Of a DNA stretch of 64,000 nt, positions 1 through 38,834 are shown one piece after another; within the stretch, counting starts at the first letter, position 1, and each line of letters opens with the position of its first letter. The stretch comes from a virus (taxonomy: Duplodnaviria > Heunggongvirae > Uroviricota > Caudoviricetes). The notes beneath the pieces are model-generated. The model ran no database searches, was not told the DNA's origin, and saw nothing but the letters and a program-made list of their open reading frames with translations. A program made the translations under genes and the position numbers. Where the stretch lies: IMG/VR virus record IMGVR_UViG_3300032167_000002, positions 216,286-280,285 of that record. The stretch is one strand, 5' to 3'.

Positions 1-55
1 AACCGCCGACGCTAGGAGCTTCAATCCTACGCTCTACCAACTGAGCTACCGGGGC
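1..55 (-). tRNA. tRNA-Phe (GAA), 5' portion, truncated by window edge
   Basis: Reverse complement gives acceptor GCCCCGG, D-arm GCTCAGTTGGTAGAGC and anticodon stem-loop TAGGA-TTGAAGC-TCCTA. Confidence 0.6.
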
Positions 56-74
56 ATAAACTAGGCGCATAAAG

Positions 75-147
75 AAAAGATTGAGGGAATTGAACCCACT
101 ACACATTGTTTAACAGACAATTGCTCTACCAAATGAGCTAAATTTTT
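75..147 (-). tRNA. tRNA-Asn (GTT), AT-rich
   Basis: T-arm GTGGGTTCAATTCCC, D-arm GCTCATTTGGTAGAGC and anticodon loop CTGTTAA. Confidence 0.6.
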
Positions 148-218
148 TCTAAAAGAAAAATTGCTGTGTGCGCCTAAATATATCACCTAAAGGAGAGTTG
201 CCTATGCACAACCCTGGT

Positions 219-291
219 TGCGGTGGGTGGGACTCGAACCCACGATTTCCAGCTTATGAGGCTGGCGACTTAGCCACTTGTCTACCCCGCA
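219..291 (-). tRNA. tRNA with CAT anticodon (Met, fMet or Ile2)
   Basis: T-arm GTGGGTTCGAGTCCCAC and anticodon stem CCAGC/GCTGG around loop CTCATAA. Confidence 0.55.
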
Positions 292-295
292 ATGG

Positions 296-369
296 ATGCA
301 GAGGGTGGATTCGAACCACCGTTCTCCAGCTTATGAGGCTAGCGAGATCGGCCTCTTCTCTACTCTGCA
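296..369 (-). tRNA. tRNA with CAT anticodon (Met, fMet or Ile2)
   Basis: Perfect acceptor TGCAGAG/CTCTGCA with CCA encoded, T-arm GGTGGTTCGAATCCACC, loop CTCATAA. Confidence 0.65.
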
Positions 370-636
370 ATATACAAGGGGGAATATTTTTCCGGTCGGA
401 GCCCCCACGACCGCACATGAAAGGAAATGAAAACCGCAATCAGCGGTTGGTAAATAATTACAAATATTTTTCCGTTACAGCTGATTGGAAAAATACCTAC
501 TCGGTGGTCAGCCTTTTGGAAGAAGTGTGTATAGAGATTGTCGCGATCCACTTCAGCTCTCTACTGCCTCATCGCTCTTAGTCTATGCCCCACCACAGAA
601 CATAGAACCCACGGTATCTCATTGTAATTATTCTGG

Positions 637-710
637 TCCCTCTGAGTGGGCTCGAACCACTGACCTGCCGGGTATGAACCGGCCGCTCTGACCAACTGAG
701 CTACATAGGG
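637..710 (-). tRNA. tRNA with CAT anticodon (third copy)
   Basis: D-arm GCTCAGTTGGTCAGAGC, anticodon stem GCCGG/CCGGC around loop TTCATAC, T-arm AGTGGTTCGAGCCCACT, CCA encoded. Confidence 0.65.
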
Positions 711-883
711 ATATGAAAATGTTGGGTAGCTGCCCTTGTAAGCACGGTACGTCGGCTAAGGCACACATTGAGTACCTACAACAGTTTATAACCAAAAAAC
801 CGTTGCCAAACAAAGCGATTCTTTCGTCTCCTCTTCCACGCCCGATTTTTCCGCTACGAGGTATCGGGAACATACCTTTATGG

Positions 884-957
<74 letters not shown>

Positions 958-1028
958 ATATAAGTGGTGAGATTGGTGCAAGGCTCTCACCAAGCCCCAG
1001 TATGGGTTATATACCACGGAGGTATTGG

Positions 1029-1101
1029 CAGCTTCGACGGGGATCGAACCCGCGATCTCCAGTGTGACAAACTGGCGAGCACTCCGCTGCTCCACGAAGC
1101 T
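1029..1101 (-). tRNA. tRNA-Asp (GTC), second copy
   Basis: Acceptor AGCTTCG/CGAAGCT, loop TTGTCAC, T-arm GCGGGTTCGATCCCCGT, CCA encoded. Confidence 0.65.
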
Positions 1102-1382
1102 ATATGTAAGATACTAAAGGCTAAGCGGATACATTTTTCAGAACCACTTTAAAGGCGTAGGAAACCCAACCTCACTTACCTCACCTACTTAGCCGGGCGA
1201 TTGGACCTGACCCGTTTCAGTATCTTTTTAGTGTAAGTTTACTTTGCTTCTTTATATAGCGTTTTCCACTAAGCCACATATCTAACGCTGTTTGTCTATG
1301 ACGCACATTGTTTTGCCGGTGGTAGTTTAACTTACAAATCCATGTTAACGCTTTTATCAATGCCGCCCAAGAGGGCTGCTGG

Positions 1383-1455
1383 TGACCCCACGGAGAATCG
1401 AACTCCGGTTTCGAGCTTGAGAGGCTCGCGTCCTAGACCGCTAGACGACGGGGCC
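1383..1455 (-). tRNA. tRNA-Glu (CTC)
   Basis: Glu-type D-arm GTCTAGCGGTCTAGGAC, anticodon stem CGAGC/GCTCG around loop CTCTCAA, T-arm CGGAGTTCGATTCTCCG, CCA encoded. Confidence 0.65.
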
Positions 1456-2083
1456 ATAAAGGAGGGCGACTTTGTCTTCTGTCCTCGGAGCGCGACTCCG
1501 GTGGGATTTCAACCCACGATTCCCTCTATAAAAATGTTTTTCGACAGCTTCTTCATCTTCTACGGCTTCCTACTTCATTATAGCCGGAATTCTGCGCTTA
1601 GGTACTGTTGTATCTACCCACGTAGCCCTCTTGCTTGAGGGGAGAAGAAATATGGACTATTCCAACTTATCCACTTTACTATCTAAAGCCTTTTTGTCAA
1701 AGGGCAGTTGGCTACCCAAAGTCCGGGACAAGGGAACGAGGACCCAGCTTTTTACGATGTCCCATATCTGCAGGATTCTACCTTAACCTGCCGGTAGTTG
1801 TGATTTCAGCTGACACAACCAGCTACGGGGAATATCCCCGATCCTCCTTGGTGGACCCGTCCTATGAGTAGCGATCTCATAGTCAATCTCCTCTTTCCAG
1901 TTGCGGAGCCAGCCCAGATGGGAATGCAGGCGATACTCGCGATTATCGCTCTAACGGGTCTGCTTTATAATTGTTTTCGCACCCGGCGCATAATAAGGAC
2001 CATGCACTGAAACCCACGACTCATTGTGCAGGTAATCGCTCCTGCCGGTCTGTTGTTAGTCAGGCTAACCGCAACCTCAATGG

Positions 2084-2157
2084 TGACCCCAGGGAGGCTC
2101 GAACTCCCATTTACAGCGTGAAAGGCTGTTGTCACTGACCTATTAGACGATGGGGCC
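2084..2157 (-). tRNA. tRNA-Glu (TTC)
   Basis: D-arm GTCTAATAGGTCAGTGAC, anticodon stem ACAGC/GCTGT around loop CTTTCAC, T-arm GGGAGTTCGAGCCTCCC, CCA encoded. Confidence 0.65.
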
Positions 2158-2291
2158 AAATTACTCTTCGTCTTGGTAGCGAGGATCTTCAAACTGGTCA
2201 TTGTAGTTGATAATCTCTGCCAATTCATCGGATTGGATTTGAGTATCGAAATCATCAATCTTTTTCATTTTGATTACCTCTCTTCCTTTAT

Positions 2292-2331
2292 CTTACATAT
2301 ATATTATAACATATTTTTTTATAAAAATCAA
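2292..2331 (-). promoter_or_regulatory. AT-rich early promoter copy (TTGATT-N17-TATAAT on the minus strand)
   Basis: Plus strand reads CTTACATATATATTATAACATATTTTTTTATAAAAATCAA. Confidence 0.6.
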
Positions 2332-2366
2332 GGAAGATTTTTTTTACTAGACACCATTTTTGCTAC

Positions 2367-2445
2367 GGCACGGACTGGGGACTCGAACCCCAATCTTCTC
2401 CTTTGAAGGGAGATGCTCTCACCCTTTGTTGACCGGTAAAGCGAT
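2367..2445 (-). ncRNA. tRNA-like element with a clean T-arm and a clean anticodon arm (loop CTTCAAA, i.e. UCA) but no acceptor or D-arm pairing; pseudo-tRNA or part of a larger RNA
   Basis: T-arm TGGGGTTCGAGTCCCCA and anticodon stem TCTCC/GGAGA; the 3' side GTCCGTG has no 5' partner. Confidence 0.3.
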
Positions 2446-2539
2446 CTCGGGTCTATATCCAGTTAAGCTAGTCTGCGAATCACAATTTCTTGCGGTCGAT
2501 GTCTAAATGGTTTGGAAAAGGAGGTCTAAATAGACCTGG

Positions 2540-2615
2540 TGGACCGTATCGGATTTGAACCGATCTGCCGTCCTGTCTGCCAGACAGGTGACCACCCCAA
2601 GCAGTCCCACAGCCC
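2540..2615 (-). tRNA. tRNA, probably Ala (GGC), with a non-standard D-loop
   Basis: Acceptor GGGCTGT/ACGGTCC with CCA, anticodon stem CCTGT/ACAGG around loop CTGGCAG, T-arm ATCGGTTCAAATCCGAT. Confidence 0.45.
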
Positions 2616-3135
2616 AAATATTGCCCTCCAATAGTCTGCGCAGTATTATTGGAGGATGAGGGTTTTGAGTCTTATACGCCCACAACTATATTGGTGAGTG
2701 CGACGGGATCCTCCCCCGCAAGCCAAGCGTCCAGGCCCGGCACCCCGTTGTCCGGAGCGCGTTTAGTTTTATTTTTCGCCACACACTCTGTGATAAATCA
2801 CACATACCTCAACAAGTCCTGCTTGCGCTTCACAGGTTTATATGTCGCGAGTAGGGGCGTACCGAACTCCGCATATCCAGGACTCTACTTTCCTGCCATC
2901 TTGTTTTGATAAAAAATCAGAGAACCGGACCAAACTCTGCGTGTGCCCCTCAGCTAGGCGGTGATTGAGCCTTTCCGCTTTACTCACACACTTTATATCA
3001 CTCTTATACCTCGGTTTTTGCCGTGCATACCACGGTGGTTAGTATAATACCGTTCCCGAACCCTCATGCATTTTTTACGAGCTCTCAGTTTTTTATAGGC
3101 CAGCCAGGAGTTAGCTACCGGATATTATACTATGG

Positions 3136-3219
3136 TGCCCTCGGCGGGACTTGAACCCGCACGCCCTTTCGGACCTTAGATTCTGAGTCTAAGAAGTCTA
3201 CCAGTTCCATCACAAGGGC
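3136..3219 (-). tRNA. tRNA-Leu (CAG), type II with long variable arm
   Basis: Acceptor GCCCTTG/CGAGGGC with CCA, anticodon stem TTAGA/TCTAA around loop CTCAGAA, T-arm GCGGGTTCAAGTCCCGC. Confidence 0.65.
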
Positions 3220-3254
3220 ATATGAACCAAGAGCGTTCTGGACCTGCCTAAACT

Positions 3255-3340
3255 ACTCGGCCGAAGGAAGGATTTGAACCTCCGTCTCTCTTGGTGCGAG
3301 TGAAAAAAGAGGGTTGCAACTAATCCGCATCTGCCTGCTG
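3255..3340 (-). ncRNA. tRNA-like element, unresolved (T-arm present, acceptor pairing not found)
   Basis: T-arm GGAGGTTCAAATCCTTC; the rest does not fold as a canonical tRNA. Confidence 0.25.
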
Positions 3341-3429
3341 CCGTACGCGCGTTGCCTGGTATTGGTAGCTACACTCACAGGTCGCCTACTGTCGCTCCAC
3401 ATTCTTTATTTTTCGGATTCCTCTTATGG

Positions 3430-3513
3430 TGCCTCTGGCGAGACTCGAACTCGCACACCCTTGCGGATACCAGATTCTTAGTCTGGGATGTCTACCAATT
3501 CCATCACAAAGGC
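3430..3513 (-). tRNA. tRNA-Leu, type II; anticodon reads AAG as written, which is atypical
   Basis: Acceptor GCCTTTG/CAGAGGC with CCA, D-arm GATGGAATTGGTAGAC, anticodon stem CCAGA/TCTGG around loop CTAAGAA, T-arm GCGAGTTCGAGTCTCGC. Confidence 0.55.
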
Positions 3514-3647
3514 AAATATAAAAGTAACTAATCGGCTAGGGACTGGTCGTGTCAGTGTGCCGCGGCATAAAGCCCTACTTTCGGTGTCTCGCTCTTAGGA
3601 CTCACGCACTTACGATTGCGTTTTCAATTTCCTTAGTTACCTTTTGG

Positions 3648-3731
3648 TGGGGATAGTGGGACTCGAACCCACACGACCTCTCGGTCACCAGATTTTGAGT
3701 CTAGCGCGTCTACCGATTCCACCATATCCCC
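3648..3731 (-). tRNA. tRNA-Leu (CAA), type II
   Basis: Acceptor GGGGATA/TATCCCC with CCA, anticodon stem CTAGA/TCTGG around loop CTCAAAA, T-arm GTGGGTTCGAGTCCCAC. Confidence 0.65.
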
Positions 3732-4104
3732 ATATGGCGGTTTTTTAGAGGCTCCGCGAAACCTCGATCTAAAACGCATTTCGAGGGCGTGCACTCCCTC
3801 TCCGGCAGCTTCACCGAACAACTCTCACTTACGGCTGGTCGTTGTCACCATCATACACCCGTGCATTCTTAGCGCCCCACACAAGGCCGTCAACTCAATC
3901 CGACTAGTCTCCAATCGTCTGGTTTTTCTAGCTTTACCAGCAAACTTCCCTTTCTCGTCTTGAGATTGTAGTTATCGGTCAAACCTCGGGAGTCAGTAAG
4001 GGAAAAACCATCTCACAAAAAGACCTATTTAGTGGGCTTCTTTGTATGTAACAGGCCACTTATTAGTATGGCTCTGGCCCCGATTCTCGAAACCCCTAGA
4101 GTAC

Positions 4105-4190
4105 GAGGACTTTTTCCGGACAGGAATCGAACCTGCATCACTCCTATTACTGCGAGCGTTCTTGCCTTGTTGAACTACCGGATCTTTTAG
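4105..4190 (-). ncRNA. Atypical tRNA-like gene; 5' half is canonical but the anticodon arm and acceptor 3' strand pair poorly
   Basis: 5' half GATCCGG-TA-GTTC...GAAC-G and T-arm GCAGGTTCGATTCCTGT are canonical; no CCA. Confidence 0.3.
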
Positions 4191-4195
4191 TAATA

Positions 4196-4269
4196 AGCCA
4201 ATGGACGGACTCGAACCGCCGGCCTGTCCCCTCCTACAGGGACCGCTCTCCCGACTGAGCTACATCAGC
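4196..4269 (-). tRNA. tRNA with an 8-nt anticodon loop (TGTAGGAG) closed by a GTCCC/GGGAC stem
   Basis: Acceptor GCTGATG/CATTGGC, D-arm GCTCAGTCGGGAGAGC and T-arm GGCGGTTCGAGTCCGTC are otherwise canonical. Confidence 0.45.
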
Positions 4270-4275
4270 ATATGG

Positions 4276-4350
4276 TGGAGCCAGTGGGACTCGAACCCAC
4301 AACCTACTGCTTGCAAGGCAGTCGCTCTCTCCAGTTGGAGCTATGACCCC
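4276..4350 (-). tRNA. tRNA-Ala (TGC)
   Basis: Acceptor GGGGTCA/TGGCTCC with CCA, loop CTTGCAA, T-arm GTGGGTTCGAGTCCCAC. Confidence 0.7.
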
Positions 4351-4356
4351 ATAGAC

Positions 4357-4421
4357 GACCGTCTGGAGAGTTGAACTCCTGTTTCTTACGGGGCGCCATT
4401 GCCCCTGCCACCCGGACAGCC
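4357..4421 (-). ncRNA. Short tRNA-like element (about 65 nt), not canonical
   Basis: T-loop-like AGGAGTTCAACTCTCC and acceptor-like GGCTGTC/GACGGTC pairing, but too short for a full tRNA. Confidence 0.2.
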
Positions 4422-4567
4422 ATATGGAAATGCAACTTATTTATGTACTGATGGAGTTGCCAACCACCCGCATACATCATATTTTTTTGACTCAAGCTCG
4501 TGCTATATGCCCGTAGAGCTGTTTAGTGATTTTTTTCTTCGCACAGGAAAAACCTACAAACCTGTGG

Positions 4568-4647
4568 TCCGGGTAGAGGGACTCGAACCCATCACGCGGA
4601 GCATCGGAACCTAAATCCGACGTGTCTACCAATTCCACCATACCCGG
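4568..4647 (-). tRNA. tRNA-Leu (TAG anticodon, reads CUN), type II
   Basis: Perfect acceptor CCGGGTA/TACCCGG with CCA, D-arm GTGGAATTGGTAGACAC, anticodon stem TCGGA/TCCGA around loop TTTAGGT. Confidence 0.55.
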
Positions 4648-4918
4648 AGATGGAACTGTGATTATGGCAGCCACAGGCCCACATCTACCACAGTGGCTTT
4701 TAAGGGATTTTTCTCAGATGATAACCCACCATCTACTCCATGCGAATGAAAGGAGTAGTGTTTAGCTTTGGGTCAGCTAACCGCACATTTGTTGATTGCT
4801 GGAATTTTTGCTTTTCCAATAGTTATGGCTTATATTATACAGAGAAGCTACATAACTGGAACCTCTGGAGGTTGGTTTAGTTTAAGGTCTCTCGTCACTC
4901 CAACAAACTCGACCTTGG

Positions 4919-4991
4919 CTGCCCCGGTGGGGCTCGAACCCACGACATCCAGATTAACAGTCTGGCGCTCTACCGACTGAGCTACAGGGCA
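4919..4991 (-). tRNA. tRNA-Asn (GTT), second copy
   Basis: Acceptor TGCCCTG/CGGGGCA with CCA, D-arm GCTCAGTCGGTAGAGC, loop CTGTTAA, T-arm GTGGGTTCGAGCCCCAC. Confidence 0.7.
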
Positions 4992-5300
4992 ATATTTAGT
5001 TGCCATTTTGGGATGGGTATTCCCCGGTTACATGAGTCCATGGCTAGACCCGGATACTTCTCGCTTGCATCTGCCGTCGTACTTTTGGTCCCACCCAAGG
5101 TATACGAGATTCTACCTTTCTGTGTTGATATAACACATATGTAAGGTGAGAAGATGATCGAAGTCCCGGACCAGCTGCTACCTGCGTCAACTTGATGAGA
5201 GCTTCTCAGAAATGGATCTTATTCTCAAGTACTTCACCCTCGAGGCATTAGCAGAATGTCGAGTCATTTCTCTTGAGGAGAGTTTTCACATTTCCTTTAC

Positions 5301-5340
5301 CTTACATATATATTATATCATATTTTTTTATAAAAATCAA
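5301..5340 (-). promoter_or_regulatory. AT-rich early promoter copy
   Basis: Same 40-bp consensus; lies inside the tRNA array. Confidence 0.6.
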
Positions 5341-5366
5341 ATAAGCACTTTTGCCCTTGATTTTTA

Positions 5367-5420
5367 TTTTGCCAAGACGGAATTTGACATACGCTGCTCT
5401 ATCCAGCTGAGCTACGCCCC
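5367..5420 (-). ncRNA. tRNA 5'-half-like fragment with no T-arm following
   Basis: Sequence GGGGCGTAGCTCAGCTGGATAGAGC; a GC hairpin GGGACCTTCGGGTCCC lies just upstream on the minus strand. Confidence 0.25.
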
Positions 5421-5477
5421 TCATATCAGGGACCCGAAGGTCCCCTTAGTAGTTCACCTACGCCACCTTGCCAGGTG

Positions 5478-5540
5478 ATGGGAGGGACGGTTGGACTCGA
5501 ACCAACGACCTGCGGCACCACAAGCTCGTCATAATTGCTG
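5478..5540 (-). ncRNA. tRNA 3'-half-like fragment (T-arm, acceptor 3' strand and CCA) with no matching 5' half
   Basis: T-arm GTTGGTTCGAGTCCAAC, acceptor 3' strand CGTCCCT, then CCCA. Confidence 0.25.
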
Positions 5541-5611
5541 TTACCGTCTTTTTTACAATGGAAAAGGTTGTATGGAGAAAGAAAGCAATCCGTGCATATC
5601 ACTTTCTTTAC

Positions 5612-5651
5612 CTTACATATATATTATAACATATTTTTTTTGAAAAATCAA
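5612..5651 (-). promoter_or_regulatory. AT-rich early promoter copy
   Basis: Same consensus. Confidence 0.6.
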
Positions 5652-5662
5652 GAAAGATTTTT

Positions 5663-6058
5663 TTATTCAGCAGGATTTTCAGAAGCCTCAGTCAAAAATG
5701 CGCCGACCTTATCAATCTCGTCTTCGAACATCATCTGCTCGTAACCAACGACTTTTACGGTCTCCACGATCCCAGGATTCTCTTCGCTGTCGCTGAACTG
5801 TAATCCTTCCGGAAGCACGCCGCCGCAAATATCATCGGTCAGATCGCTCCAATCCTCATACAGATAAAAAGGATTGACGACGCCGTCTTCCGCAGCGGTC
5901 TTCACCACTTCATCGATCTCGAATACGCCACCACAACAGGAGCAAATTACCTCATCACGGTATGCGATACCACACAGCCAATCTCCCGGATTTTCCGGGT
6001 CGGCAAAAACAACTTGCTTTGGTTTATCGAAGTAATATCGTTTTTCCATCGCTATCAT
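5663..6058 (-). CDS. Hypothetical acidic early protein (131 aa)
   Basis: ORF with upstream AT-rich promoter and Shine-Dalgarno-like AAAGGAAAGG; starts MIAMEKRYYF. Confidence 0.6.
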   Translation of the reverse strand: MIAMEKRYYFDKPKQVVFADPENPGDWLCGIAYRDEVICSCCGGVFEIDEVVKTAAEDGVVNPFYLYEDWSDLTDDICGGVLPEGLQFSDSEENPGIVETVKVVGYEQMMFEDEIDKVGAFLTEASENPAE

Positions 6059-6073
6059 TTCCTTTCCTTTATC

Positions 6074-6111
6074 TTACATAAATATTATAACATATTTTTT
6101 TATAAAAATCA
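6074..6111 (-). promoter_or_regulatory. AT-rich early promoter copy driving 5663..6058
   Basis: Consensus followed on the minus strand by AAAGGAAAGG then ATG. Confidence 0.6.
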
Positions 6112-6249
6112 AGAAAGACTTTTTAATGGCGATAGTGTCGCTCCGAACGACATCTTTCATTGAGTGTTTCACCCTACAAAGGACTACTCGTTCAATTACT
6201 TCCTCCTCGATCCACGGAGGTGGTTTTACCTTAAACTAACTACCGGTGG

Positions 6250-6321
6250 CAGGGGAGTAGGGATTCGAACCCCAATACACAGTTTTGGAGACTGTAGTCC
6301 TAGCCGTTAGACGACTCCCCT
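6250..6321 (-). tRNA. tRNA-Trp (CCA)
   Basis: Perfect acceptor AGGGGAG/CTCCCCT with CCA, anticodon stem ACAGT/ACTGT around loop CTCCAAA, T-arm TGGGGTTCGAATCCCTA. Confidence 0.7.
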
Positions 6322-27712: not shown

Positions 27713-27742
27713 TATTATAGCATACCTTGGGGGTTTTGTCAA
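27713..27742 (-). promoter_or_regulatory. Consensus sigma70 promoter (TTGACA-N17-TATAAT) embedded in the palindrome GGGGGTT...AACCCCC
   Basis: Minus strand reads GGGGGTTGACAAAACCCCCAAGGTATGCTATAAT. Confidence 0.6.
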
Positions 27743-28425: not shown

Positions 28426-28438
28426 GCACTTTTTTTGG

Positions 28439-28532
28439 TGGAGATGGGGGGAATCGAACCCCCTTGCACACCCTCGGCAGGATGAAGGCTTAGACCAAAG
28501 CATCCTCTGACTTTCCTAGCCAGCCCATCCCC
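28439..28532 (-). tRNA. Type-II tRNA-like gene (94 nt) with a 16-nt anticodon loop containing UCUAA; amber-suppressor candidate, speculative
   Basis: Acceptor GGGGATG/CATCTCC with CCA, D-stem CTGG/TCAG, anticodon stem GGATG/CATCC enclosing CTTTGGTCTAAGCCTT, 16-nt variable arm, T-arm GGGGGTTCGATTCCCCC. It has its own promoter (TTGCAT-N16-TATAAT) at 28540-28585. Confidence 0.45.
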
Positions 28533-28704
28533 ATCGGACAATAGTATTATACCATAATTGCGGGACAATGCAAGTGGTAATAGTGCACAAAAATTCGATT
28601 TGAAAAAATGCCTGGGTTGTGCAAAATGCTAAATAACGCCCGCGACATTTGTCTGCGGGCGGCCGAAAATTATGTAAACCGCACAAAAAATTACACAAAA
28701 ACGC

Positions 28705-29200: not shown

Positions 29201-29575
29201 TTAGACAAGGGAGAAGTATGCCTTTCTCTTGTCCTCGGTACGCTTGACCTTGCCAGCCTCGACCAACTGGCGGAGCAGGGCGGACACCCTCTGATTGGTC
29301 AGGTCAGCACACGCAGGGATGGACTTGATGACCTCGGTAACGGTGTACAGACGGTTGGGTTCCATACCCTCGACGATGGCGGTGGCGATACCTGCGTTCT
29401 GCACCTGCTGTGCGGTGGGCTTCTTGTCAGCGGAGTTCTTCTTGGTCAGCAACTCGACCTCGTGGTCGATAAACTCGACCAGCATTGCGTTCTCCGCAAC
29501 GGCAGGGATGGCACGGAGCATAGCAAACTTCTGTGCCTTGGTCAGCTTGGGGGTAGAGGTAGTGTTAGTAGCCAT
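29201..29575 (-). CDS. Cassette gene B (124 aa), winged-helix DNA-binding protein; paralog of 33021..33404
   Basis: TNTTSTPKLTK...YTVTEVIKSIP..LTNQRVSALLRQLVEAGKV.RTEDKRKAYF. Confidence 0.6.
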   Translation of the reverse strand: MATNTTSTPKLTKAQKFAMLRAIPAVAENAMLVEFIDHEVELLTKKNSADKKPTAQQVQNAGIATAIVEGMEPNRLYTVTEVIKSIPACADLTNQRVSALLRQLVEAGKVKRTEDKRKAYFSLV

Positions 29576-29639
29576 AGTATCGACTTCCTTTCGGTTTTTA
29601 CGACTTGAACCTGTCGGTAATATTCACAAGAGGTTTCCC

Positions 29640-29900
29640 TCTTTGTGTTCTTATTATAGCACATTCAGTGCGGTTTGTCAAGAGGTTTTTTGAAGTTTTT
29701 TCAACTTTTTTTCAACCGCTTGGCTTGGGGTGTTCCCCTCATTGCTCTTACATTGTATCACATCTTGGGGCATTTGTCAAGAGGTTTTTCAACTTTTTTT
29801 TCGCTCGGCTCGCTCTGTCCTGCGTTGTTGCTCACCCTCATTGCTCCTTAATTGTACCACATCGCACCGCAAATTGCAAGTAGTAATTTGCACAAATAAC
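29640..29900 (-). promoter_or_regulatory. Tandem array of three sigma70-type promoters with A-tract UP-like elements upstream of cassette B
   Basis: Three TTGACA or TTGCAA -N17- TATAAT or TACAAT units, each 5'-flanked by GAAAAAAAGTTGAAAAAACC, with a CCTCTTGACA ... TGTCAAGAGG inverted pair. Confidence 0.6.
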
Positions 29901-29938
29901 GGGATTTTACAGAATGATTATTTGTGCAAAATTTCCTC

Positions 29939-29967
29939 TTGACAAATTGCTGGGGGTCTGTTATAAT
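29939..29967 (+). promoter_or_regulatory. Conserved plus-strand (antisense) promoter CTTGACAAATTGCTGGGGGTCTGTTATAAT, copy 1 of 3
   Basis: Perfect -35 and -10 with 17-bp spacer; convergent with minus gene 30040..30252. Confidence 0.55.
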
Positions 29968-33439: not shown

Positions 33440-33960
33440 ATTACATTTAGATTATACCACAAGTGGTTGAATTTGTCAAGAGGTTTTCTGAAAAAATTCC
33501 GGACTTTTTTCATTATACAACAGACCTCATGCCGTCATTGGGATTGTATTCTGTCCTTACTTGCCCTGAGTCTACCGCACCATTCTGCCGTTCGTTCTAC
33601 CCTTTGGCGAACATACTTGGTCAATGGGTCTTGGTTTCAATCCGCAGTGTTTCCGTTTCCACCAATCCATAGGGGAGTATCTCGATGTGTTCCCCTCTTG
33701 ACACACTCATTATACCACACTTTGTGGGGTTTGTCAAGAGGTTTTTTCAACTTTTTTTCGTTTCGGTCTGTCCATCAACTTGACCCGACCTACCGAGTGG
33801 AGTTGCTGTCCCCTCTTGACATACTCATTATAGCACATCTTGTGCCGTTTGTCAAGAGGTTTTTTCAACTTTTTTTCGCCATTCTGTGGCTCAACCTCAC
33901 GGCTGTGGGGAGTTGCTGTCCCCTCTTGACAATAGTATTCTATCACATCTTGAGCCAAAA
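33440..33960 (-). promoter_or_regulatory. Tandem array of at least four sigma70 promoters (about 115-bp units) upstream of cassette B'
   Basis: Repeated units ...GTTGCTGTCCCCTCTTGACA...TATAGCACA...TTTGTCAAGAGGTTTTTTCAACTTTTTTTCG. Confidence 0.6.
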
Positions 33961-34024
33961 TGCAAGTGGTAATGTTGCACAATTATGGGAGATTTTGCGC
34001 TGATTTATTTGTGCGGTTTGCCTA

Positions 34025-34054
34025 TTGACAAATTGCTGGGGTCTGTGGTATAAT
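34025..34054 (+). promoter_or_regulatory. Conserved plus-strand antisense promoter, copy 2
   Basis: ATTGACAAATTGCTGGGGTCTGTGGTATAAT. Confidence 0.5.
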
Positions 34055-37515: not shown

Positions 37516-38133
37516 TTAGAAAATCGTTGCCAAAATTTCAGCCTTGCGGTTGAGTTCTGCCACATCTTCTGCGGTGATTTCTCGCAGTTCGGGGAAGCGG
37601 TCATTGCCCAAGAGGGTCAGACCTTTTTTCTCGAAGTGGTCACGGATAACATCTTCCATAGCGAGTGCGTGATTTTTATTTTTGCAGGGATACCAACCAA
37701 GCACCACACCGCTGTCAGCTTCGTTTGCGTAGTCAACTGTGAAATGCTGATTTAGTCTGCGGATTGCATCGTCAGCCTTTCCGCATTTAATCCACAGGTG
37801 CTTGCCTTTCTTGTTGAAATGCTGAACGATGTAAGCACCGCAACCCTCTGCCGGAACATTAAAAATCAGATTGTGATTGACAAGAGTGGCAGGATTTGGG
37901 ATGCGACCTCTGCCCAACTTTTTCAGCTCTCGCTTGATGGGGTCAAGGATGAAGTATTTTGCCCAGGCGGTGCAGGCATTGAAAATGTCCTCGACTACTT
38001 TCCACCAACGACCTTGCCAATTCTTAGTGGCTGACTGGTATCTCTTGTATGCACCAACAAGGTCATTTCCATTGCGGTAGTCCTGCATTGTGAGGGTGGG
38101 GGTGGGGTGAATTGCGTGTACCATTTCAATCAT
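37516..38133 (-). CDS. Hypothetical protein with a GIY-YIG-like segment
   Basis: GAYIVQHFNKKGKHLWIKCGKADDAIRRLNQH. Confidence 0.3.
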   Translation of the reverse strand: MIEMVHAIHPTPTLTMQDYRNGNDLVGAYKRYQSATKNWQGRWWKVVEDIFNACTAWAKYFILDPIKRELKKLGRGRIPNPATLVNHNLIFNVPAEGCGAYIVQHFNKKGKHLWIKCGKADDAIRRLNQHFTVDYANEADSGVVLGWYPCKNKNHALAMEDVIRDHFEKKGLTLLGNDRFPELREITAEDVAELNRKAEILATIF

Positions 38134-38199
38134 TTCCTTTCGGCTTCCTTTGATGCTCTAATTATAGCACAACTTGATTTGTTTGTCAAGCATTTTTTT

Positions 38200-38760
38200 T
38201 GCCAAGTCTTATATTTTTCCGAGAAGATACTTGGCGAGAACCTCGTGGTTTTCCGGGGTAGTTTTCCTTCTCCCGCAGTAGGGGTGGTGGCTTTTGTATC
38301 CTGCGTATCCCCAACATTTTTTCAGCCTGTGGGGTCTGGTTCACATTTGTATACCGCAAACAGGAACACCTTGCGGTCGGGTCATCGGGTAATGGTCTTA
38401 CATACTCTCGTGGGAATCCGCCATCTTCGCGGTTGCCTTACCCTCGCCTTTTGTACCCTTATTGTATCACACTCTAAGGGATTTGTCAAGGGGTTTTCCC
38501 AACTTTTTCTCACCTTTTCGCGAGGGAGCTACTGGGGAGGATACTCGATTGGGGTTTCCCTCCCCCTTGACACCCTTATTGTATCACAACTTGGGTGATT
38601 TGTCAAGAGGGAAATTGAAATTTTTTCAACTTTTTTCGCTCTGTTATTGTCGGTACCGCTTCTCCTGAATCGGGCGCTACATTCGCGCCACAGTTTGCGT
38701 TCCCTCTTGACAATGATAGTATACCACAGACCGCACACAAAGTCAACTGGTAATGTTGCA
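38200..38760 (-). promoter_or_regulatory. Third tandem promoter array (at least four TTGACA-N17-TATAAT or TACAAT units)
   Basis: Repeats of ATTGTATCACA...TTTGTCAAG(A/G)GG with CCCTCTTGACA inverted partners. Confidence 0.55.
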
Positions 38761-38805: not shown

Positions 38806-38834
38806 TTGACAAATTGCTGGGGCTGTGGTATAAT
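38806..38834 (+). promoter_or_regulatory. Conserved plus-strand antisense promoter, copy 3
   Basis: ATTGACAAATTGCTGGGGCTGTGGTATAAT. Confidence 0.5.

Follow-up and report, generated by a model that had tools for sequence, protein, structure and literature searches.

In a 64,000-nucleotide (nt) stretch of viral DNA (positions 216,286 to 280,285 of the IMG/VR record IMGVR_UViG_3300032167_000002; hereafter the window), taken here to be the early region of an uncultured, roughly 200-kb phage with gut Clostridia as hosts, three arrays of stacked minus-strand promoters stand ahead of early genes, and in two of these arrays the -35 box with its upstream flank, CCYCTTGACA, is mirrored by TGTCAAGRGG just downstream of the -10 box. 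This mirror is best read as a transcript start whose pairing partner is the RNA copied from the next promoter's flank and -35 box, giving a helix of 10 base pairs (bp) that closes each leader segment. On the comparative evidence set out below, the base pairing of this helix is under selection. One 10-bp sequence would thereby hold two jobs, as flank and -35 box in the DNA and as the 3' strand of a leader helix in the RNA. A first-pass annotation had taken the repeat for an operator-like palindrome spanning the promoter, a tempting misreading that the comparisons correct; a palindrome around a promoter need not be an operator.

The covariation of the two arms carries this conclusion. A single position varies in each arm (Y of CCYC, R of GRGG), and the start of each transcript was compared with the TTGACA that follows it in a set of 142 non-redundant pairs. 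R and Y are Watson-Crick partners in 117 of the 142 when the flank is that of the next promoter (A-U 84, G-C 29, U-A 4), and in only 58 of 142 when it is the promoter's own. Shuffling of partners among the sequences gave a mean of 72.6 matches, with 117 reached in none of 1000 permutations, and in Fisher tests the next flank had p = 1e-9, the own flank p = 0.005. When own and next flank disagree, the transcript start follows the next one by 15 to 2, both exceptions lying at 295 nt or more. The motif was retrieved with three search patterns, all of which left the next promoter's flank free, so that the match to it is not an artefact of ascertainment. The distance to the partner in the next promoter is variable, between 50 and 260 nt, and in 12 of 86 cases the downstream CTTGACA partner lies outside any promoter, as a free-standing CCCCTTGACA. 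Watson-Crick covariation across 50-260 nt argues for pairing between nucleic acids and against half-sites for a protein.

Compensation is also seen over shorter evolutionary distances. Within array 3 alone the pairs alternate, GAGGG/CCCTC being followed by GGGG/CCCC. Among the related contigs compared with the window, which bear L-numbers, six encode a B protein (the product of the gene behind array 1) that is 93% identical to that of the window and are treated as strains (L204-L209); both array architectures are kept in them, despite spacer insertions and deletions of 12 and 44 nt. In one of these, L206, the transcript start reads TGTCAGGTGG and its partner, at a distance of 249 nt, CCAC (GTGG/CCAC), which amounts to a double compensatory change with a G.U pair in addition. 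The local hairpin at the start of the proximal transcript of array 1 reads TGTAAAGAGG-AACA-CCTCTTACA in sister strains and CACAAAGAGG-GAAA-CCTCTTGTG in the window, a difference of three compensatory pairs.

The position of the mirror points to a helix in the sense RNA. Among 329 non-redundant promoters of the first loci, TGTCAAG begins at offset 5 after the -10 box in 45 and at offset 6 in three, and essentially nowhere else; offset 5 is the sixth base after the -10 box, which is the predicted transcript start. RGG follows TGTCAAG in 44 of these 45 mirror-type promoters. The helix is exactly 10 bp long, and positions beyond it agree only at chance level, as do the untranscribed positions -1 and -2 before TGTCAAG, though AA usually follows TTGACA. 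A further promoter lies within 200 nt downstream of 27 of 37 mirror-type promoters, as against 28 of 254 standard ones. It is from the fixed position at the predicted start, the lack of any extension upstream of that start and the consensus promoter directly in front that the sense-strand assignment is drawn.

The window has exact copies of the unit CCYCTTGACA-N17-TAYAAT-N5-TGTCAAGRGG at 33737, 33855 and 38606, as against none in 100 shuffles, and relaxed copies of the mirror stand at 33965 and 38746. All five copies belong to arrays 2 and 3, so the earlier statement that the -35 box is mirrored in each unit holds for these positions and fails for array 1, the flagged array (29640-29900). The plus-strand CCTCTTGACA that had been named as a -35 box is instead the reverse complement of the transcript start, the nearest -10-like hexamer standing 5 nt off and not 17. 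Beyond the window, the exact unit was found in 34 IMG/VR phage contigs, and the pattern of promoter plus TGTCAAGRGG in 69 stretches of GTDB genomes, nearly all of them metagenome-assembled genomes (MAGs) of gut and rumen Clostridia. The motif is widespread, with at least 190 distinct instances in uncultured phages of gut and rumen Clostridia; counts that rest on the flank-free IMG/VR search are of instances among the matches listed.

Several observations weigh against this reading of the mirror. The 142 pairs, though non-identical, are phylogenetically related, and the transcript start is everywhere a prediction from the position of the -10 box. Wobble counts (8 G.U versus 5 A.C) do not identify the strand and are uninformative, so that position and the neighbouring promoter are what supports the assignment to sense RNA. 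In array 1 the helix is missing from the two upstream units. Among the 45 mirror-type promoters, 17 have no downstream partner and run straight into messenger RNAs (mRNAs) or transfer RNAs (tRNAs), from which it follows that TGTCAAGRGG may have a second role. A local hairpin would be a simpler means of protecting a 5' end than a bracket of 50-260 nt. Lastly, in MAGs of termite-gut Oscillospiraceae the motif pairs with its own flank (CCCYCTTGACA...TGTCAAGRGGG), which is a different use of the same palindrome. The Oscillospiraceae copies (L141, L143, L144, L164, L169, L174, L177, L181, L198 and L200) belong to the promoter of a multi-copy small gene of about 100 nt with a strong terminator at its end.

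Folding of the leaders is consistent with the closing helix. The minimum free energy (MFE) structure of all four units of this kind in the window includes a closing helix of 10-11 bp, with z-scores from -3.2 to -5.2; a longer RNA bracketed by such a helix is listed after them:

33850-33931, minus strand: closed leader unit, arms 33931-33922 and 33859-33850 (flank and -35 box of the next promoter), z -4.27
33732-33821, minus strand: closed leader unit of 90 nt, arms 33821-33812 and 33741-33732, 10-bp helix closed in the MFE structure, z -4.39
38601-38712, minus strand: closed leader unit of 112 nt, 11-bp helix of TGTCAAGAGGG with CCCTCTTGACA, z -5.16
38484-38572, minus strand: closed leader unit of 89 nt, TGTCAAGGGG with CCCCTTGACA of the next promoter, z -3.18
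33474-33703, minus strand: conserved RNA of about 230 nt in the 258-nt gap of array 2, arms of the 10-bp helix 33703-33694 and 33483-33474

In leaders of at least 50 nt behind promoters of the window, a stem begins 0-4 nt from the predicted 5' end, and in the predicted folds the mirror-type arm is paired from nucleotide 1, counted from the predicted and not from a mapped start. Short leaders lack structure, their Shine-Dalgarno sequence lying 10-15 nt from the 5' end, and the gene-proximal promoters have either this arrangement or a local 5' hairpin in place of the closing helix. The interiors of the short units are conserved neither between relatives nor even between strains. The RNA of about 230 nt, which has a covarying inner stem (CUC/GAG versus ACA/UGU) and a covarying 3' A/U hairpin, belongs to a family of about 200-230 nt that recurs in L076, L142, L154, L156, L173 and L190 and in strains L204-L209, with unrelated genes downstream in different contigs. 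Rfam covariance models run over the arrays, at the gathering threshold and at E <= 1, gave no match, this RNA included. At least one unclassified structured RNA family is brought to light.

The arrays themselves are laid out as follows, with the start of each -35 box given first for the array as a whole and the promoters then listed in the direction of transcription.

Array 1, minus strand: -35 boxes starting at 29879 (TTGCAA, weak), 29780 and 29681, then gene B
29851-29879, minus strand: outer promoter, TTGCAA-17-TACAAT, with a weak -35 box and a TTTGTGCAAA-type motif about 9 nt upstream of it
29752-29780, minus strand: middle promoter, CCTC-TTGACA-17-TACAAT, with an A-rich UP-like stretch, transcript start AGCAATGAGGGGAACACCCC, no closing helix
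29653-29681, minus strand: gene-proximal consensus promoter, 12/12
29625-29647, minus strand: local 5'-terminal hairpin of the proximal transcript, CACAAAGAGG-GAAA-CCTCTTGTG
Array 2, minus strand: -35 boxes starting at 33965 (TTGCAT, weak), 33855, 33737 and, after a gap of 258 nt, 33479, then gene B'
33937-33965, minus strand: outer promoter, TTGCAT-17-TAGAAT, transcript start TGTCAAGAGGGG (33931-33920)
33827-33855, minus strand: promoter, 12/12, mirror type
33709-33737, minus strand: promoter, 12/12, mirror type
33451-33479, minus strand: gene-proximal consensus promoter with a 50-nt leader
Array 3, minus strand: -35 boxes starting at 38746 (TTGACT), 38606, 38489 and, after a gap of 300 nt, 38189, then a T5orf172-like gene
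38718-38746, minus strand: outer promoter, TTGACT-17-TATACT, transcript start TGTCAAGAGGG
38578-38606, minus strand: promoter, CCTC-TTGACA-17-TACAAT, transcript start TGTCAAGGGG, which mismatches its own CCTC flank
38461-38489, minus strand: promoter, CCCC-TTGACA-17-TACAAT, standard transcript start
38190-38460, minus strand: untranslated stretch of about 270 nt with a conserved block of 80 nt
38161-38189, minus strand: consensus promoter just upstream of the T5orf172-like gene

All array promoters lie on the minus strand. Their spacings are 99 and 99 nt in array 1, 110, 118 and 258 nt in array 2 and 140, 117 and 300 nt in array 3, a range of 99-300 nt that does not bear out the uniform spacing of about 110 bp first proposed; in the close-packed stretches, two to four promoters 99-140 nt apart, each with roughly one RNA polymerase footprint, point in one direction at one target. 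The transcripts of the two upstream units of array 1 begin AGCAATGAGGG and are not of the mirror type. No credible open reading frame (ORF) was found between units in any of the three clusters, which contain only start-codon-poor ORFs that lack ribosome-binding sites and are not conserved between strains (insertions and deletions). The three promoter arrays without intervening ORFs that the first-pass annotation described are thus real, its dismissal of the peptide MAKKS was sound (this is merely ATGGCGAAAAAAAGTTGA within an A-rich UP-like stretch), and its description of the promoters as consensus is borne out by 12/12 or 11/12 matches outside the outer promoters with their -35 boxes TTGCAA and TTGCAT (both weak) and, in array 3, TTGACT. 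As in stacked early promoter clusters generally, at least two host-type promoters of the same direction stand in ORF-free DNA ahead of an early gene.

Promoters throughout the window take the form TTGACA-17-(TRTGn)TATAAT. Between 27 and 41 kb, 22 sites match all 12 consensus positions, and a relaxed scan threshold yields 46 sites against 13.3 +/- 3.9 in shuffles; over the whole window 42 sites match at least 11 of the 12 positions, about 35 of them on the minus strand between 26.8 and 44.6 kb. Most minus-strand promoters are followed, 15-27 nt downstream, by a strong ribosome-binding site and a small ORF. Read on the minus strand, a unit starts with an A-rich stretch, followed by CCTC-TTGACA, then a 17-bp spacer with TRTGn at its end and lastly TATAAT, so that TTGACA, 17-bp spacer, TATAAT, extended -10 element (TRTG/TG) and upstream A/T-rich UP-like tract are all present. 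The core matches at 12/12 or 11/12, and the TG and the A-tracts stand out as peaks of information. These features support the prediction that the array units are complete, stacked promoters of the sigma-70/sigma-A type. Promoter cores, from the flank to the transcript start and with their spacers included, are nearly invariant between the window and L023, and the DNA between them cannot be aligned. The minimum spacing of about 86-91 nt is roughly one footprint of RNA polymerase.

The likeliest explanation, which is held tentatively, is that stacked sigma-A promoters deliver a burst of early RNA protected by base-paired 5' ends. Stacking would multiply initiation into one target. A mirror-type transcript would begin (U)GUCAAGRGG and pair with the CCYCUUGACA copied from the flank and -35 box of the next promoter, such that each untranslated leader segment folds into a closed stem-loop with its 5' end buried in a 10-bp helix. 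A 5'-terminal helix could shield long, ribosome-free leaders from 5'-end-dependent decay, for which RppH and RNase J1 are responsible in Firmicutes; RppH of B. subtilis requires at least two unpaired 5' nucleotides (PMC3997798). The closing helix would also let every segment fold independently, and the outcome would be a fast and durable burst of B-family proteins and non-coding RNAs. Very high-level expression and the production of short leader RNAs, both among the roles suggested earlier, come near to this reading. Were it correct, it would supply a testable design rule for strong and durable expression in Firmicutes, namely stacked consensus promoters with transcripts capped by pairing to the next promoter.

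Other explanations have to be weighed against this one, and the most serious is that each unit is a small-RNA gene. The two ends of the RNA would pair, as they do in tRNA, 6S or Y RNAs, and the RNA, set free by processing at the helix or close to it, would serve host takeover, for example as a sponge or decoy for RNA polymerase or a host protein; the stacking would then be simply a gene array. We regard this as possible but doubtful. The conserved family of about 200-230 nt represented by 33703-33474, with its covarying inner stems and its occurrence in at least 8 further contigs and ahead of unrelated genes, speaks for it, as do the helix partners outside promoters and the tRNA operons that are also headed by mirror-type promoters (13 tRNAs in L024; the equivalent of array 3 in L023 leads into tRNA-Lys); the unconserved interiors of the short units (about 70-100 nt), the absence of terminators between units and of any Rfam match, and the shortness of a 10-bp helix for RNase III speak against it. 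A related and somewhat less probable proposal is that the closed units form a new class of promoter-bracketed phage non-coding RNAs acting in trans at host takeover, or that the nascent helix acts on polymerase. Each such RNA would have its own consensus promoter and a helix whose 3' strand is the next -35 box, would be released or retained as a stable RNA, and could sequester a host RNase, an RNA-binding defence sensor or RNA polymerase; the family of about 230 nt (33703-33474) would be one member. In the nascent-helix alternative, sigma-dependent recapture or pausing would be suppressed as polymerase crosses the next promoter, making dense stacking workable.

That CCYCTTGACA and TGTCAAGRGG are DNA operator half-sites, through which B, B' or a host protein shuts off or titrates early transcription, is improbable. 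Arms that cover the -35 box and the start site would be ideal for repression, winged-helix proteins are encoded directly downstream, and the Oscillospiraceae copies do match their own flank. The arms are nevertheless complementary to the next promoter rather than to their own, at variable distance, and Watson-Crick covariation that includes U-A and GTGG/CCAC is not predicted for half-sites, a homodimer predicting conservation instead. Two half-sites at fixed spacing and co-conserved around one promoter, as a dimeric repressor would have them, were not found, 56 of 284 standard promoters have the CCYC flank without a downstream arm, and a better operator candidate lies at 29887-29930. We consider it equally improbable that the arrays are sinks for the host sigma-A holoenzyme whose transcripts are by-products kept inert by the helix. 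About 35 consensus promoters in 18 kb, some with nothing to express, and a minimum spacing of about one footprint would suit such a sink, but selection on the helix is left unexplained, and the repeated placement of arrays before B-family genes and stable RNAs in many relatives argues for expression of the targets. Two further explanations appear very improbable. An intrinsic terminator on the plus strand, formed by CCCCTCTTGACA...TGTCAAGAGG and a T-run (the complement of the UP-like tract), might stop antisense transcripts from divergent promoters: the plus strand does read as hairpin and T-run, consensus promoters exist on that strand at 29939, 34025 and 38806, and at several other promoters the loop enclosing the -35 box belongs to a G/C hairpin scored as a terminator. 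It requires, however, the own-flank pairing, which is not the selected one; the T-run falls inside the loop under next-flank pairing, and the loop of 28 nt departs from the G+C-rich stem, short loop and U-tract of such terminators. The last explanation, that of recombination cassettes for gene shuffling or of an invertible DNA switch, with no role for RNA, is in keeping with highly similar promoter cassettes among many small early ORFs, with gene content beside promoters that varies between strains, and with a phage precedent (PMC4122927). Against it, no inverted spacer was seen among seven strains, all in one orientation, 10 bp is too short for homologous exchange, the complementarity of the start to the next -35 flank is not predicted, and no recombinase domain was seen in the proteins scanned, in a scan that was not exhaustive.

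Parallels with known systems are instructive. In the A1-A2-A3 promoters of T7 and in P1-P2 of rrn operons, strong promoters for the host polymerase are stacked in the same direction ahead of the first target, and the RNA between them is untranslated. In the present case a region has three arrays, each unit has a perfect consensus, an extended -10 element and an UP-like stretch, and the start of an upstream transcript is complementary to the -35 region of the next promoter; we know of no such pairing in T7 or rrn. The processing stalks of ribosomal RNA are long-range helices around 16S and 23S, about 20 bp or longer, that are substrates of RNase III. They are alike in that the flanks of an RNA module pair over a long distance and close it, and differ from the present helix, which has 10 bp and a 5' arm formed by the very start of the transcript.

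The stabilising leaders of ompA, papA and aprE resemble the present units in having a helix at or within a few nt of the 5' end, which in these units is a predicted one; the decay enzymes involved need unpaired 5' nucleotides, and papers on mRNA-stabilising 5' stem-loops are found in the reference list of PMC3997798. Those leaders form local hairpins, whereas the 3' arm of the present helix is found at a distance of 50-260 nt and serves at the same time as a promoter element in the DNA. [quoted passage not shown] The likeness lies in the clustering of small early genes behind strong promoters in a Firmicute phage (PMC6873191); no sequence relationship was found, and a closing helix and ORF-free stacked units do not appear in the description of SPO1 that was consulted (PMC6873191). 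The promoter/stem-loop (PeSL) cassettes of T4-like phages are likewise short, conserved and repeated early-promoter cassettes with a stem-loop between small variable early genes (PMC4122927, PMC2839356). The PeSL stem-loop is a terminator before the promoter, with a proposed role in recombination, while here the helix brackets a transcribed spacer and the hosts are of Gram-positive type; repeated cassettes are present in the window and some -35 boxes lie in G/C hairpins, and no U-tract follows these on the sense strand. Stacked early promoters, takeover clusters, promoter/stem-loop cassettes and 5' stem-loop stabilisers are thus already known. What was found undescribed is the pairing of a transcript start with the RNA copy of the next -35 box, of which literature and database searches returned no description; literature searches with the motif strings led only to unrelated eukaryotic oligonucleotides.

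Two of the arrays, 1 and 2, sit directly upstream of paralogous winged-helix genes, as the first-pass annotation recognised, and array 3 precedes a gene of another kind.

29201-29575, minus strand: gene B, 124 amino acids (aa), C-terminal winged helix
33021-33395, minus strand: gene B', 124 aa, 72% identical to B
37516-38133, minus strand: T5orf172-like gene, 205 aa, weak Pfam match

The structure model of B has N-terminal helices and a C-terminal winged helix, with a predicted local distance difference test (pLDDT) score of 82, and a fold search returned only generic winged-helix repressors (ArsR/MarR-like) and TubR. The family has 4384 homologues, none of them annotated; Pfam gave weak hits (Penicillinase_R, below cut-off), PHROGs an unknown family, and a PDB profile search with B no match. 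In relatives, B-family genes encode 111-125 aa, occur two to four per locus and again stand behind two to four stacked promoters. Several copies per phage, placed behind such arrays, mark the B family as a priority early function. A gene with a T5orf172 hit occupies another position in the closely related strain L207 (4360-4716), and the evidence suggests a mobile insertion, putatively homing-endonuclease-like, beside the promoters. The 80-nt block upstream of it (38195-38274) is 97.5% identical to 6470-6549 of L023 by BLAST, every aligned column within the block matching, and the two phages that share it are otherwise about 70% identical; in L023 the block is followed by tRNA-Lys.

Upstream of each array, the opposite strand carries a promoter of its own.

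29939-29967, plus strand: divergent consensus promoter, with paralogues at 34025-34054 and 38806-38834 (plus strand)
29887-29930, between the divergent promoters: 13-bp inverted repeat TTTGCACAAATAA-N18-TTATTTGTGCAAA; related motifs constitute family D16

The inverted repeat at 29887-29930 is a better candidate operator than the mirror. Both divergent -35 boxes have, about 9 nt upstream, a near-palindrome of the TTTGTGCAAA type, a likely regulator site, and promoters 30840, 35775 and 36634 have one upstream as well. The three plus-strand promoters (29939, 34025 and 38806) diverge from the arrays and, with no ORF, run into terminator hairpins that belong to the minus-strand operon upstream; they may yield antisense RNAs.

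Further features of the promoters were noted in passing. A small palindrome, nCACA-N3-4-TGTGn, occupies the 17-bp spacers of 33855, 33737 and 29681 and of many relatives, its outer pair covarying; among 327 promoters, 18 five-bp stems were counted against 2.3 expected, in a minority of promoters only. At 27742, 31996, 37029, 39496 and 40230 (minus strand) a G/C hairpin, for example GGGGGTTGACAAAACCCCC after an A-run, has the -35 hexamer in its loop; the plus strand of these five scores as an intrinsic terminator, and the stem sequences vary with complementarity kept. The leaders of promoters 31996 and 35571 (minus strand), like others in L002, L023 and L031, begin with a conserved 5' hairpin, GTTGRGGGAGCGAYGGCAAACCCNCAA, which may be a cis-regulatory element; the genes that follow it encode 147-290 aa, and several products begin M..DRR(K/R).Y..LD.ET.

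As to the setting, the bins of related contigs are gut and rumen Clostridia, and the exact B protein is also encoded on contigs of about 200 kb. Protein similarity of the window is remote, to Phass-1 and to large Bacillus siphophages, and otherwise to unannotated faecal contigs; DNA-level searches of GenBank phages, for near and for distant relatives, gave no match. The window contains 17 tRNA genes; the tRNA block at 1-6321 (minus strand) comprises 17-18 genes, three of them for tRNA-Met, and includes an ARAGORN call of undetermined anticodon at 4196-4269. A gene of 97 nt at 28436-28532 (minus strand), with a promoter at about 28542-28570, resembles only the tRNA-like domain of transfer-messenger RNA (tmRNA): the acceptor has a G3:U70 pair, the T-arm is of the form GGGGGUUCGAUUCCCCC, the end is CCA, and the mRNA-like part is absent. 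It was missed by ARAGORN, and the Rfam tmRNA model scores it at 38.9 bits (gathering threshold 47) with E = 7.7e-13.

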